In this document: positions 3,159-36,741 of the stretch, piece by piece | Position numbering within the stretch: position 1 is the stretch's first letter | How the letters are laid out: every line of letters begins with the position of its first letter | IMG/VR virus record: IMGVR_UViG_3300010413_000023 | Span: 4,191 to 68,190 of that record | Reading direction: 5' to 3' (one strand) | Source: a virus | DNA: 64,000 bases | Translations under genes and position numbers: made by a program | The notes under the pieces: generated by a model | What the model was told of the DNA's origin: nothing | What the model saw: the letters and a program-made list of their open reading frames with translations, nothing else | Databases searched by the model: none

Positions 3159-3836
3159 TTATTGACAAGCTCTTTTACTCATCATATCCGATAAAATCGC
3201 TTTCCAGTGTTTGCGCTTGCTGTTTGTCCGACAATGACAAGACACGCAAAGAGTAATCAGATTAGAAGGCCGCAAGTTCGCCTTATCATAATCGATATGA
3301 TGTACCTGCAATTTTGGTTCTTGTTTTCCACAAAGCATACATTGAAAACGATCCCTTTTTCGGATAAGTACCTTTAGTTCTTCATTGAACTCACGAGGAT
3401 ATGGGGTAGGTTCAATTCTTCGTGCCGCATATTTGCATTCTTTTGAACAGTACCTTCCTCGTTTCTCATCTCTTGCTCTTGCCTGGCGAGTGACAAATTC
3501 TACACCGCACCACTCGCAAATGCACTCCGCGCCACCGCCCTTCCAATGGAATGCAATTTCTCCAGTCATTGTAGACTGCCACCGAGAGCGACATTCTTGT
3601 GAACAGAAACGTATTGTGTGTGATGGTTTGTTGTAAATAACTTTTCCGCAAATTTCACAATGGTATTCTGCCGTTCCGCCATTTCTCCAAAGTGGATTAT
3701 TTGTCCCAACATTTCCCGCAACACAGCATTCCTTTGAACAAAACCTACCACGCCCCGCTTTCGCCCTAGAAGGAATAATCTCAAATGACTTTCCGCAAAA
3801 TTCACAAACCTTAGCGATTCTATACTTTTTTGTCAT
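3159..3836 (-). CDS. HNH homing endonuclease with tandem Cys-rich zinc-finger repeats
   Basis: Three CxxCG...(F/Y)CSxxC repeats, then RDRFQCMLCG..LQVHHIDY..NLITLCVSCH; start at MTKKY overlaps upstream stop (ATGA); AT-richer than flanks. Confidence 0.85.
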   Translation of the reverse strand: MTKKYRIAKVCEFCGKSFEIIPSRAKAGRGRFCSKECCVAGNVGTNNPLWRNGGTAEYHCEICGKVIYNKPSHTIRFCSQECRSRWQSTMTGEIAFHWKGGGAECICEWCGVEFVTRQARARDEKRGRYCSKECKYAARRIEPTPYPREFNEELKVLIRKRDRFQCMLCGKQEPKLQVHHIDYDKANLRPSNLITLCVSCHCRTNSKRKHWKAILSDMMSKRACQ

Positions 3837-4471
3837 CTGTATTCTTTCGTGCAGCGGCAATTTGTTAAACCAAGGCATGTTGTTTGTCCTGCAATTACGT
3901 TGCCCGATCCAGGTTGAGCAAAAAACCCTAAATTTTGCCATCCCATCGCGTCGGCGTCCGAACACGGGCCACAAGTCGAATCGTCGCCGACGGCGTGCCA
4001 CCGTTCTTGTGTCATCCCCTGGTCACGGGCTTGCATATCCTGAACCCGCCAGTACACCTCACGCGATGAATTGAGATACATTTTTGTGCGGGCTTCAATT
4101 TGCGCCGCTGTCAAGCTCCCGCTTTCGATCTGCTTGGCGAAATCCTTGAGATAGTTGTACTGTTCTCGAACCGAACCGCCGACCATACCCCACAAACGGG
4201 GCGTCATCTGTTCGCGTCCGCCCGCCGCCAGCATTGCCTGTTGAGCATAAGCATTCTTGATCTGGCGGGCAAATCCGGTTTGCCAATCGGCTACACTCAA
4301 GCGTTTATCGGCGAGCATTGTATTAAGCGTCGCAACCGGGTTTTCAACCGTCCGATCAACAATGCTGTCTACCAGCCCCAGGATCGTCTCGCGTCCGACA
4401 AACTGTCCCGTCGCAAGGTTGCGGTATCGCCCCGTTGTTGTTTCCCATACCCACTGGATAACGTTAGCCAC
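3833..4471 (-). CDS. Phage head morphogenesis protein (MuF/SPP1 gp7-like)
   Basis: Directly downstream of portal; C-terminal W...DDSTCGPC...NCRC motif. Confidence 0.7.
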   Translation of the reverse strand: MANVIQWVWETTTGRYRNLATGQFVGRETILGLVDSIVDRTVENPVATLNTMLADKRLSVADWQTGFARQIKNAYAQQAMLAAGGREQMTPRLWGMVGGSVREQYNYLKDFAKQIESGSLTAAQIEARTKMYLNSSREVYWRVQDMQARDQGMTQERWHAVGDDSTCGPCSDADAMGWQNLGFFAQPGSGNVIAGQTTCLGLTNCRCTKEYR

Positions 4472-33714: not shown

Positions 33715-33990
33715 TCATTGTTCTTCCTGTTCCATGTCTAGCTTCTCACTTGATACGGTATACGACTCATAGTGATCTTCGTATTCGTCAACGTGTACCC
33801 TGACGCGGTATGCCTGTTCTGTCTCAAGTTCGCCGCAAATGTACGGCGTTTCATCCTCGTTGGTTTCTCTGAGAAAGTCGAGATAGGCCATTGGCACTTG
33901 TTCGCCGGTTACGTTCCAAATGTCGAACGAATGCGGAACACCCGGATCGTCAACGTGCGAATGTAGCCAAATCGTTAGTTCGACTTTCAT
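33715..33990 (-). CDS. Acidic hypothetical protein
   Basis: ATGA-coupled; GGGGG RBS. Confidence 0.5.
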   Translation of the reverse strand: MKVELTIWLHSHVDDPGVPHSFDIWNVTGEQVPMAYLDFLRETNEDETPYICGELETEQAYRVRVHVDEYEDHYESYTVSSEKLDMEQEEQ

Positions 33991-34190
33991 TGTTCCCCCT
34001 TGTACTCGACGCCCGAGTCAACCAGGATGCGCCCCGTGTCGAGCATTTCGGCCATCATCCGAATGGCTGCACTCAGGTTCGGCCCGCGCAATGTTGACAG
34101 TCCGTGGTCGTCTGAAAAACGCGATAGGCGTTCAATGGTTGCCGCGTCCAGGTTGACGCTTGTGTTCTGATATGTCATGTGTCCCTCCAT
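33987..34190 (-). CDS. Ribbon-helix-helix-like regulator, divergent from tnpB
   Basis: TSVNLD..TIERL.RF...NLSAAIR. Confidence 0.6.
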   Translation of the reverse strand: MEGHMTYQNTSVNLDAATIERLSRFSDDHGLSTLRGPNLSAAIRMMAEMLDTGRILVDSGVEYKGEQ

Positions 34191-34201
34191 TTCTAATATC
34201 T

Positions 34202-34231
34202 ATTATACAATGGAATGCCGTCACCTGTCAA
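34202..34231 (-). promoter_or_regulatory. Consensus sigma70 promoter (leftward early operon)
   Basis: TTGACA-18-TATAAT. Confidence 0.8.
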
Positions 34232-34357: not shown

Positions 34358-34386
34358 TTGACAATAGACCTATTTTATGGTATGAT
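34358..34386 (+). promoter_or_regulatory. Sigma70 promoter for tnpB/CRISPR unit
   Basis: TTGACA-17-TATGAT with extended TG. Confidence 0.85.
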
Positions 34387-34389
34387 TTA

Positions 34390-34522
34390 GCTGTGAGACA
34401 AAGAGAAGCCGCGATCATTTTTGAATACCACAAAAGCACAGGCTTTTTCAACAAAGCCCGGTATCATAATTTTCTCTTTGTCTCACAGCAACAGAGAACA
34501 AAACAATGATACCGGGCTTTGT
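34390..34522 (+). promoter_or_regulatory. Structured 5' leader with two interleaved perfect inverted repeats
   Basis: 18-bp IR 34390-34407/34472-34489 and 17-bp IR 34451-34467/34506-34522 in A-B-A'-B' order. Confidence 0.75.
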
Positions 34523-34539: not shown

Positions 34540-35730
34540 ATGAGAGCATATAAAGCGGAACTCGATCCAAACAACAAACAAATTGGTTTTTTTCGTCAAT
34601 GCGCCGGCGCGTCCCGTTTTGTATTCAACTGGGGATTGGCTAGGTGGCAGCAATTATATGAGGAAGGGGAAAAGCCAAGTCGGTATGGTTTGTGTAAAGA
34701 GTTCAATTCAATCAAAGACGAGCAGTGTCCGTGGATTCGAGCCTTGCCCTATGCCGTTGTCGAGGCAGCCTTCTATGATCTTGGTTTTGCATTCCAGAAT
34801 TTTTTCAGACGTGTCAAACAAGGGGCCGATAAAGCTGGTTATCCAAAATTCAAACAGCGATCAGGGAAACGATCTTTTGCTGTGCGAAGCGCAACCGTTG
34901 AGCGCGACAGAATCAGGATCACCAGCCTGGGCTGGGTGCGTCTCAAAGAAAACGGCTATTTGCCTATCGAGGGCAAGCACACGGTATATGCTAGAATCTC
35001 AGAACGTGCCGGACGTTGGTATGTAGCTATTGGAACAGAACATGAAGCAGAGCCAACAGAACTGACCGATCTTGTAATTGGCATTGACCTGGGCCTCAAG
35101 ACGCGGGCCGTATTCTCAAATGGGACATTTTTTGATGCGCCCAAAGCGACATACGAGTATGAGAAAAAGCTGGCGCGGGCAAGCCGTGAACTGTCACGCC
35201 GGAAGCGGGGCGGGCAGAATTGGAAGAAAACAAAGCTCAGAGTTCAGCGCCTGCACGCCAAGATCGCAGACGTTCGCAAGCATTGGTTACACCAGATCAG
35301 CCATTATGCAACGTATGAGTTGAGGCCAAGCGTGATTGTCCTGGAAGACCTTAACGTGTCCGGGATGGTGAAAAACAGGCACTTGGCGAAAGCTGTCAGT
35401 GATGCTGGATTTTATGAACTACGGAGACAGATCGAATACAAAGCTGCGTGGCTTGGTATCGAGGTTGTCATAGCAGACCAATGGTTTGCCAGTAGCAAAA
35501 CGTGTTCTGTGTGTGGTTGGAAAAACACAGACCTGGCACTCTCGGATCGCGTTTTCAAATGCCCAGAGTGCGGGCTTGAGATGGACAGGGACTTGAATGC
35601 GGCGCATAATCTGGCCGCTTTAGTGAACCGTCAAACAGACGGGGATTGCCTGGGGAGTTGCGGTGATGTAATGTCGTACTGTGAACCAGGAACTCGGCAG
35701 CCGAAAGCAGGCATAAGAACCGGGATGTGA
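34540..35730 (+). CDS. tnpB: RNA-guided endonuclease TnpB / compact Cas12-like effector (CRISPR-associated)
   Basis: N-terminal RAYKAELDPN HTH; RuvC-I GIDLG, RuvC-II VLEDL, Zn finger CSVCG...CPECG, RuvC-III DRDLNAA all intact; 396 aa. Confidence 0.93.
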   Translation: MRAYKAELDPNNKQIGFFRQCAGASRFVFNWGLARWQQLYEEGEKPSRYGLCKEFNSIKDEQCPWIRALPYAVVEAAFYDLGFAFQNFFRRVKQGADKAGYPKFKQRSGKRSFAVRSATVERDRIRITSLGWVRLKENGYLPIEGKHTVYARISERAGRWYVAIGTEHEAEPTELTDLVIGIDLGLKTRAVFSNGTFFDAPKATYEYEKKLARASRELSRRKRGGQNWKKTKLRVQRLHAKIADVRKHWLHQISHYATYELRPSVIVLEDLNVSGMVKNRHLAKAVSDAGFYELRRQIEYKAAWLGIEVVIADQWFASSKTCSVCGWKNTDLALSDRVFKCPECGLEMDRDLNAAHNLAALVNRQTDGDCLGSCGDVMSYCEPGTRQPKAGIRTGM

Positions 35731-35774
35731 TCGGGGTAAATCCCGATCATCACCTACGAACTGTGGGATTCAAC
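35625..35774 (+). ncRNA. omegaRNA/tracrRNA-like scaffold overlapping tnpB 3' end
   Basis: ACCGTC..GACGG hairpin, GCCTGGGGAG...GTGAACCAGGAA TnpB right-end-like motif, hairpin 35728-35749, end ...TGTGGGATTCAAC complementary to the repeat; boundaries approximate. Confidence 0.65.
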
Positions 35775-35798
35775 GTGGGCTTAATAACTGCATATAGG

Positions 35799-36073
35799 GT
35801 TGAACCCACATGCGCGTGGGGGATTGGTCTTGCGATCACTCTTTACAGGTTGATCGAAAGTTGAACCCACATGCGCGTGGGGGATTGGGTGCATCCTGAC
35901 AAAGCGGCGGTTGTCTATGCGTTGAACCCACATGCGCGTGGGGGATTGGTGTAGCACGAAAAACGAACTTTGACAAAAGCCAGTTGAACCCACAGGCGCG
36001 TGGGAGATTGGGAAGCCGCATCAGAAATGGTGCGACTTTTGTCAGTTGAACCCACATGTGCATAGGTGACTGA
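35799..36073. CRISPR. CRISPR mini-array, 5 repeats (29 bp) and 4 spacers (32,32,33,33 bp)
   Basis: GTTGAACCCACATGCGCGTGGGGGATTGG at 35799, 35860, 35921; 2-mismatch copy at 35983; degenerate copy at 36045; internal CCCAC/GTGGG hairpin. Confidence 0.95.
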
Positions 36074-36219: not shown

Positions 36220-36741
36220 TTACGCTAAATGAAGCGCTTTTGTTTTTTCACCTGCCATGTATGACCACGGGCAATTGTCGGTTGTGAAATATCCGAGACG
36301 GTATAATTCAGCATCCACACGCTCCAGTGTTTTGCTGTGCAGTCTCATTTTAGGGCCATTGGCATCGATCCATGTTGCCATGTTCCAACTGCCAGTATAA
36401 GCACGGCTTGCGCCCAGCCAATCGACCACCATTTCCCGCACATAAATTTCAGGCATTGGCAAACAGCCGTTTTCAGCCTTACTGCCCCCATGACTATGAT
36501 CGCTACGTGTGATCCAATATTCCCAGTGATGTGGATTACAGTTTTGATGATGTAGCCACGCCGCTGCAAATCCATGTGGATCGCTTTTGTCTCCAAAGAA
36601 TTGCCGATCATAGTGTGGCAATTCTGATCTTGAGAATTTGCTTATATCATGGACGATAGCACGCCATAGCGGAAACCCTGTCCGAATTGCCGCGATCAAA
36701 ACGAACCATTTGTGTTTTAGTGTTGCAAAAAAGTATCTCAT
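36220..36741 (-). CDS. HD-domain-like phage protein (DUF5662-like)
   Basis: HKWFV...HDISKF...AWLHHQNCNPHHWEYW...MP..YVREMVVDW.GA. Confidence 0.75.
   Translation of the reverse strand: MRYFFATLKHKWFVLIAAIRTGFPLWRAIVHDISKFSRSELPHYDRQFFGDKSDPHGFAAAWLHHQNCNPHHWEYWITRSDHSHGGSKAENGCLPMPEIYVREMVVDWLGASRAYTGSWNMATWIDANGPKMRLHSKTLERVDAELYRLGYFTTDNCPWSYMAGEKTKALHLA

Follow-up and report, generated by a model that had tools for sequence, protein, structure and literature searches.

The stretch analysed here, called the window throughout, comprises 64,000 nucleotides (nt) of a complete 68,190-base-pair (bp) virus record with direct terminal repeats (IMG/VR record IMGVR_UViG_3300010413_000023, positions 4,191 to 68,190). 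It carries a single-copy tnpB-like gene whose 3' end is overlapped by an omegaRNA-type scaffold, followed on the same strand by a hairpin, an inverted and degenerate copy of a CRISPR repeat, a short linker and a small CRISPR array. The arrangement is best read as a type V-like CRISPR module of the TranC kind, derived from TnpB and carried by a phage, and not as an insertion sequence, a reading to which we assign a probability of about 0.6. The features at the core of the locus are listed below.

34540..35730, plus strand: tnpB-like gene of 396 amino acids (aa), with the Pfam families HTH_OrfB_IS605, OrfB_IS605 and Cas12f1-like_TNB
35628..35724, plus strand: core of the omegaRNA-type scaffold, delimited by covariation among 17 loci
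35727..35750, plus strand: hairpin H, with a 9-bp stem and a 6-nt loop in the predicted fold
35749..35774, plus strand: anti-repeat, an inverted, degenerate copy of the CRISPR repeat, recognised by alignment, duplex energy, shuffles and fold
35775..35798, plus strand: 24-nt linker or leader end, forming the loop of the anti-repeat:repeat-1 hairpin in the predicted fold and containing AACTGCATATAG
35799..36073, plus strand: CRISPR array of five 29-nt repeats, which start at 35799, 35860, 35921, 35983 and 36045

The three Pfam matches of the 396-aa protein, to the helix-turn-helix, OrfB_IS605 (RuvC) and zinc-ribbon TNB families, have expectation (E) values of 2.5e-15, 1.6e-22 and 3.3e-25, and each passes the curated cut-off; the RuvC triad D183/E269/D351 is present, aligned to ISDra2-type motifs and invariant in 30 homologues. 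The best solved relatives are 8iaz (E 2e-59) and ISDra2 TnpB, which matches over the full length (E 1e-54); the LaTranC structure matches only the C-terminal RuvC/zinc-finger part (E 3e-21), and Cas12f proteins match weakly and in the C-terminal part only (E 1e-8 to 6e-5). Traits of an insertion sequence were not found: the complete phage has no detectable Y1 transposase (Y1_Tnp, TnpA), no second tnpB copy and no recognisable transposon ends. A search of the complete phage for Cas1, taken as a marker for cas genes, was likewise negative.

The scaffold has a consensus of six helices and 25 pairs in an alignment of 17 related loci. Standard pairs occupy 94.2% of the cells, compared with 70.1% in column shuffles and 37-48% when the partners are slid, and compensatory changes occur in 20 of the 25 pairs. 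Judged by this covariation, the scaffold is a real structured RNA under strong RNA-level constraint. Its helices in the window are P1 (35628-35642), P2 (35649-35653 with 35686-35690), an inner hairpin, and P4 (35693-35697 with 35720-35724). A first-pass annotation, made from the sequence of this DNA before any comparison, had pointed to right-end-like RNA motifs at the tnpB 3' end, and these do fall within the conserved scaffold, its GCCTGG and CCAGG segments being the two strands of P2. The sequence GCCTGGGGAG lies at 35648-35657 and TGAACC at 35682-35687, the latter as part of a conserved stretch, GTGAAnCAGGAA, whose CCAGG pairs with CCTGG within the scaffold. In most loci P4 is followed by a hairpin H of variable sequence, a variable tail and the first repeat; H itself is nearly identical in one relative, L019, and a hairpin of other sequence was read by eye at the same position in L012, L018, L024, L051 and L188. 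Nowhere in the window does any Rfam family reach its gathering score. P1 together with GGATTG (35623-35652) was also considered as a direct repeat-like copy, and was judged a coincidence, being significant in only 2 of 13 loci.

The repeats are 29 nt long and palindromic and the spacers measure 32, 32, 33 and 33 nt, which is the architecture of a type I-E array. The last repeat (36045), at the tnpB-distal end, is degenerate (66%). A terminator-like hairpin with a T-run lies at 36017-36034, inside 'spacer 4' and just 5' of this degenerate copy, so the transcript may end at the last unit, which would then not hold a true spacer.

Upstream of the array, the first-pass annotation had described a 28-mer at 35747-35774 as an inverted copy of the repeat that faces repeat 1 (35799-35827) across 24 nt, and its coordinates, here and elsewhere, proved correct on checking. 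The inverted copy is borne out over 35749-35774, where local alignment with the reverse complement of the repeat gives 22 matches in 27 columns with two 1-nt gaps and a score of 20, a value reached by only 2e-4 of 9082 background 28-mers of the window; aligned in direct orientation, the 28-mer scores 13 (background fraction 0.05). The RNA duplex calculated for the 28-mer and the repeat has an energy of -28.3 kcal/mol, matched by 0.0011 of 11560 background windows. Furthermore, in the minimum-free-energy fold of 35720-35830, positions 35753-35774 pair with positions 1-21 of repeat 1 in 19 bp with bulges (z -2.9 against shuffles), across the 24-nt linker. The core of the repeat is palindromic (CCCAC...GTGGG), so a direct copy would also give part of the match, and only the flanks (TTCAAC versus GTTGAA) fix the orientation. 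The scaffold and the repeat 2-spacer 2 unit are predicted to cofold at -79.4 kcal/mol, compared with -51.8 and -11.3 for the separate RNAs, a gain of about 16. The further suggestion that 35775-35798 might be used as a guide in cis found no backing: this segment has no other match in the window (35775-35794 was compared at up to three mismatches), and the unit that precedes it lacks the conserved ...TTGG handle.

Comparison with related loci places these elements in a family context. Relatives were fetched from metagenomes (80 loci), cellular genomes (80 loci) and viral genomes (89 loci), five further viral loci with the same scaffold type were added by way of a scaffold 15-mer, and a tree of 111 TnpB rows was built with FastTree only, with Shimodaira-Hasegawa-like (SH-like) support. 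Arrays of 29-nt repeats with a 61-63-nt period lie directly 3' of tnpB in 14 loci (L012, L016, L017, L018, L020, L021, L026, L049, L051, L176, L177, L188, L191 and the window). Reading of individual loci added L022, in which the array lies 3' of the scaffold of an upstream tnpB fragment, L182, with a degenerate array, L024, with one repeat unit at the end of its contig, and L296, L324 and L344 as further viral examples. A single repeat-like unit followed by unique sequence is present in L019, L029, L068, L262 and the second gene of L022. In the tree the window falls in a clade of 14 (support 99) made up of 11 array loci and 3 single-unit loci, and in this clade together with its sister trio all 17 loci carry one to six repeat-like units directly 3' of the scaffold. 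The repeat sequences diverge along with the TnpB protein, and the single-unit forms are nested among the array forms. Twelve relatives read at 45-47% identity have the classical ...GGAGAACGG omegaRNA 3' end and no array, and none of the 80 best cellular-genome loci (<=45% identity) has an adjacent array by the criteria that identified those above, so the clade has so far been seen in viral and metagenomic contigs only.

The single-unit loci bear directly on the polarity of the array. In L019, L029, L068 and L262 a plus-strand unit, consisting of a hairpin and ...TTGG or ...TTTG, stands at the 3' end of the scaffold, and since unique sequence follows it, the guide is expected 3' of the plus-strand repeat. 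In direct orientation, 21 of 29 positions agree between the unit of L029 and the repeat of L177, its sister (a count by eye), and the unit of L068 has its GGAAGCTGG handle in common with the repeat of L049. Because of these loci and of the degenerate repeat at the distal end, the CRISPR RNAs (crRNAs) would be read from the plus strand and have their guide 3' of the repeat, the order known from TnpB and type V systems.

Evidence for the anti-repeat as a family feature comes from the 80 nt before repeat 1, which were compared with the cognate repeat, and with shuffles, in 16 array loci. Inverted similarity beats 95% of shuffles in 6 of the 16 and direct similarity in none; the fractions of shuffles that do as well in inverted orientation are 0/500 for the window, 0.002 for L051, 0.012 for L191, 0.022 for L020, 0.028 for L018 and 0.044 for L024. 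In L051, whose protein is 39% identical, a full-length inverted copy with both flanks ends 19 nt before repeat 1 (score 22 inverted versus 12 direct), and inverted, cognate-specific copies end 8-25 nt 5' of repeat 1 across L051, L191, L020, L018 and L024. Duplex z-scores are -5.7 for the window, -3.4 for both L051 and L191, -2.4 for L020 and -2.3 for L012, and no duplex-energy signal was found in L016, L017, L018, L021, L022, L026, L049, L176 and L177. Taken over 15 loci, scaffold tails prefer their own repeat to those of other loci (summed energy -335 versus -297.5 ± 12.2 kcal/mol; permutation p 0.00115), and an ungapped-run test against the guide-proximal (3') half of the repeat, over 18 loci, gives p 0.0025. 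By eye, the segment that follows H is complementary to the repeat stem's 3' strand and varies in step with it, reading CACCTAC in the window, CACCCAC in L019 and L012, and ACACCCCT in L018. These comparisons suggest that the anti-repeat is, in part, a feature of the family: the tests across the family give p about 0.001-0.003, and the anti-repeat is individually significant in 6 of 16 array loci and not in the other 10.

These ten loci are one of several points that count against the interpretation favoured here. They include L016, the closest array-bearing relative (64% identity), and repeat:anti-repeat pairing may therefore be dispensable or lineage-specific. Part of the complementarity in the window comes for free from the palindromic core of the repeat, and the anti-repeat shares its 5' end with the 3' strand of hairpin H. 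Mononucleotide shuffling was used, the lengths of the tails (60-80 nt) were chosen by the analyst, and L188 and L191, both among the loci compared, are near-duplicates. Similar arrays at L188/L191 and at L051 fall outside the main clade in the FastTree tree, which reflects either repeated capture or an error in the tree. Lastly, the precedent of Cas12r is reported to work with crRNA alone and no tracrRNA (trans-activating CRISPR RNA), a single repeat being enough (10.64898/2026.04.20.719267).

An alternative is that the segment takes no part in pairing and is only what is left of the terminal hairpin of an ancestral omegaRNA, or else a degenerate 'repeat 0'; TnpB would then use the hairpin and handle of each repeat directly, or only the first unit in cis. 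In favour of such a relic, L019 has a CACCCAC-ACAAT-GTGGGTG hairpin followed by ATTGG directly 3' of its nearly identical H; read by eye, CACCTAC-GAACT-GTGGG-ATT of the window aligns with it in order, and the ten array loci that lack a significant anti-repeat and the behaviour of Cas12r also fit. Against a relic speak the non-palindromic flanks, which match only in inverted orientation in the window (20 versus 13) and in L051 (22 versus 12), and the cognate specificity of the tails. Moreover, the scaffold is under strong RNA-level constraint and must therefore join the crRNAs of spacers 2-n somehow. For these reasons we regard the relic as unlikely, though an alternative of some weight. The array could instead be a phage-borne type I-E mini-array read by the host's Cascade, its place beside tnpB being due to something else, such as a shared leader or promoter, or TnpB homing. 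Its 29-nt palindromic repeats and 32-33-nt spacers have the form given for type I-E in the Cas12r preprint and the Cas1 search indicated no adaptation genes in the phage, but a mini-array of this kind would not predict that all 17 clade members, even those with a single unit, have a repeat-like unit exactly where the omegaRNA ends 3', nor the joint divergence of repeat and TnpB, cognate-specific anti-repeats, and the lack of adjacent arrays in the 80 best cellular-genome loci (<=45% identity). It is accordingly considered improbable.

Two further possibilities concern the inverted element itself. The first-pass annotation had offered two models for it, one in which a tracr-like anti-repeat pairs with a plus-strand crRNA precursor, and one in which a minus-strand transcript of the array yields crRNAs that each imitate the scaffold's ...GGGATTCAAC 3' end. 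The similarity of 35747-35774 to the reverse complement of the repeat is, taken alone, equally compatible with a minus-strand array, but single-unit relatives are plus-oriented and end in ...TTGG, the degenerate repeat occupies the end away from tnpB, repeats throughout the family keep a ...TTGG/...TTTG handle at their 3' ends but not TTCAAC-like ends, and TGAACC sits inside the conserved GTGAAnCAGGAA. On these comparisons a minus-strand array appears very unlikely, and the model with plus-strand pairing is better supported, both by the inverted copies in relatives and by the polarity of the single units. That the resemblance arose by chance beside a palindromic repeat is scarcely credible; at 26 nt the element is short, and scores are raised by the palindromic core, but the background frequency is 2e-4 per background window and the feature recurs in distant loci.

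How a TnpB-derived module could be expressed is suggested by three additional features.

34358..34386, plus strand: sigma-70-like promoter, TTGACA-17-TATGAT with TG, agreeing at 11 of 12 consensus positions (a consensus match only)
34390..34522, plus strand: structured 5' leader with two long inverted repeats, read from the sequence
35582..35610, plus strand: promoter-like site in the tnpB 3' end, just 5' of the scaffold, agreeing at 10 of 12 consensus positions

The first inverted repeat of the leader (34390-34407 with 34472-34489) is perfect over 18 nt; the second (34451-34473 with 34500-34522) is 91% matched over 23 nt and ends 17 nt before the tnpB start codon. Promoter and leader may together form a regulatory leader of tnpB. 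The site at 35582-35610 is a weak hint of a promoter, because it overlaps the conserved DRDLNAAHN codons. A perfect (12 of 12) sigma-70-like promoter at 34202-34231 is on the minus strand, points away from tnpB, and faces small minus-strand open reading frames at 33987-34190 and 33715-33990.

The comparisons above show the anatomy of the locus, a conserved scaffold structure, a conserved linkage of gene and array, and the complementarity; the steps that follow are inferred from them. In the proposed mechanism, one plus-strand transcript from the promoter near 34358 would carry tnpB, the omegaRNA-derived scaffold, hairpin H, the anti-repeat, the 24-nt linker and the array. The anti-repeat would pair with repeat 1 in cis, giving a natural single-guide hairpin, and could pair with repeats 2-4 in trans, the scaffold then serving as tracrRNA. 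After processing, each repeat-spacer unit would bring a 3' guide, the ...GATTGG handle and one strand, the 3' one, of the terminal stem. Pairing would thereby restore a TnpB-type guide RNA complete with terminal stem, handle and guide at its 3' end. TnpB, with its RuvC site intact, would assemble with such guides into a ribonucleoprotein and cut matching DNA, presumably of competing mobile elements. Growth of the array is proposed to depend on the host's type I-E Cas1-Cas2, because the repeats are palindromic and 29 nt long, the spacers are 32-33 nt, and the phage is without Cas1.

In L019, a 5-nt loop joins the two strands of the terminal hairpin. In the window the remainder of the anti-repeat, the linker and the 5' half of the repeat come between these strands and themselves pair, so that the window looks, by sequence, like the L019 terminal hairpin opened at its loop. 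It is possible, if doubtful, that the CRISPR repeat of this clade is the omegaRNA's own terminal hairpin and handle in type I-E shape, that host I-E Cas1-Cas2 could write guides straight into a transposon-type guide RNA, and that the clade is a natural series of splitting or re-fusion steps. Such a series would run through single-guide forms (L019, L029, L068, L262), arrays without an anti-repeat (L016, L017) and loci with a full anti-repeat (the window, L051, L191). The description of the locus as a 'snapshot of guide-RNA splitting' is apt for its anatomy, but the change may have run either way, towards splitting or towards re-fusion, because the single-unit forms are nested among the array forms; they may be secondary collapses.

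Several known systems share parts of this anatomy. ISDra2 TnpB-omegaRNA is a close solved relative in which, as here, the scaffold reaches over the gene's 3' end and the guide is 3'-terminal; the difference is that TnpA, a second copy and transposon ends were not found in this phage, and that a CRISPR repeat unit, not a transposon right end, closes the scaffold on its 3' side. In Cas12f (type V-F) systems the tracrRNA lies between the effector gene and the array, its anti-repeat pairs with the repeat, and the guide is 3' of the repeat; Cas12f is larger and acts as a dimer. The window would share this architecture; at the protein level the match to Cas12f is weak (E 1e-8 to 6e-5).

TranC systems (Jin et al., Cell 2025, doi 10.1016/j.cell.2025.09.004) are presented in reviews and a preprint as TnpB-derived effectors that stand beside arrays and whose right-end RNA (reRNA) is divided between a tracrRNA and a crRNA, and as having arisen repeatedly from IS605/IS607 TnpB lineages. 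The window is like them in its TnpB-sized effector beside an array and, if the favoured reading holds, in an omegaRNA/reRNA functionally split into tracr-like scaffold and crRNA. It differs in its repeats, which are 29 nt compared with 32-38 bp in TranC clades 3, 9, 11 and 20, and in its protein, which LaTranC matches in the C-terminal part only while ISDra2 TnpB matches it over the full length. Cas12r is a 564-aa TnpB-like effector of Thermus Lalka phages with proven interference (Trofimova et al., bioRxiv 2026, 10.64898/2026.04.20.719267), and is reported to use 29-bp I-E-like repeats, spacers of about 32-33 bp, a 5' ARG protospacer-adjacent motif (PAM) and crRNA only, a single repeat sufficing; its authors propose that the adaptation module is that of a host I-E system (10.64898/2026.04.20.719267). 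In both cases a phage without adaptation genes encodes a TnpB-like protein, and a short array stands directly 3' of the gene, its degenerate I-E-like repeats being 29 bp long and its spacers about 32-33 bp. Compared by description, Cas12r has 564 aa and a 15-bp intergenic region, and the window 396 aa and a covarying scaffold of about 100 nt with an anti-repeat. CauTranC9, from a Caudoviricetes genome, belongs to a clade averaging 414 aa and has 5 repeats of 38 bp (bioRxiv 10.64898/2026.03.27.714800). It too is an ultra-compact effector without domain expansions in a viral genome, with five repeats, and its native array targets phages; the difference, again by description, is the 38-bp repeat, compared with 29 nt here.

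The locus thus combines traits of TranC (TnpB size, retained scaffold) with traits of Cas12r (I-E-shaped repeats in a phage genome). The concept of omegaRNA splitting is already published for TranC, and what the present case adds is a well-resolved example that can serve as a test bed. Should the module function as proposed, it would be among the smallest CRISPR-linked nucleases (396 aa), with an easily read tracr-like scaffold, and would be a second, independent case beside Cas12r of a phage TnpB-type nuclease with I-E-shaped repeats, which would point to parasitism of the host's adaptation machinery. Relatives with one to six units, with or without an anti-repeat, are material for studying the passage from a one-piece to a two-piece guide RNA and, if the proposal is right, would make each step of splitting or re-fusion testable with natural sequences.

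Searches for targets and for related arrays gave little. The array of the window has no match among 50,697 GenBank phages, nor do the arrays of L051, L016 and L188 match GenBank phages; the first 22 nt of spacers 1 and 2 have no exact match in IMG/VR, and no other array with the window's repeat was found there. From 15 loci, 52 spacer-length pieces were collected; comparison of those measuring 20 nt or more against the window and every fetched locus yielded two matches only, both short and partial (16 and 19 nt; E 0.006 and 0.02), which were taken as chance. As no protospacers were found, no target-adjacent motif (TAM) or PAM could be derived.

The viral contigs L188 and L191 have 98.5% identity over the 3.85 kb that lead to repeat 1 and cannot be aligned beyond it, the repeats being all that they have in common there. 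Spacer turnover between them was considered as evidence of acquisition, and is not a clean case, since the downstream flank is also unalignable. Their anti-repeat segments differ, that of L191 fitting the repeat better.

At the junction of leader and array, AACTGCATATAG occurs exactly in the window and in L016 (1687-1698), 0-16 nt before the first repeat, and with one mismatch in L012 (around 3773-3785), and (A/T)AGG is found at the leader-repeat junction in most loci. This motif may serve the leader or integration as a signal, or may act as a -10 element. Other arrangements of tnpB and repeats were also encountered. In L022 (2133-3700) the scaffold of the upstream tnpB fragment, four repeats and a second, complete tnpB follow in tandem, the second gene having its own 3' end with a single repeat-like unit; two tandem tnpB copies are also present in L025, L178 and L179. 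Two distant relatives, whose TnpBs have 36-37% identity, may represent further TnpB-CRISPR associations: L069 (3800-4110) has five repeats of about 37 nt with a 66-nt period, and L254 (3860-3990) two copies of about 40 nt with a 76-nt period.

The genes around tnpB are phage-like and include a RecT-like gene and large unannotated minus-strand genes, among them one near tnpB for a 769-aa coiled-coil protein that looks like a tape-measure protein. Within its gene block tnpB is the sole plus-strand unit. Directly downstream of the array, 36220-36741 on the minus strand encodes a DUF5662 protein (Pfam E 4e-35; a PHROG of unknown function). A search for RNA runs with this sequence was negative, and among the contigs of four DNA runs, only the probable source contig and short pieces of relatives matched. 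Marine-sediment run X1, the probable origin of the contig, holds short contigs of related scaffolds that cover window positions 35590-35702 and differ from the window at 35666/35667 and 35671/35672, as well as a repeat (window 35898-35933) with different flanking sequence, so relatives of this locus coexist in the sample.

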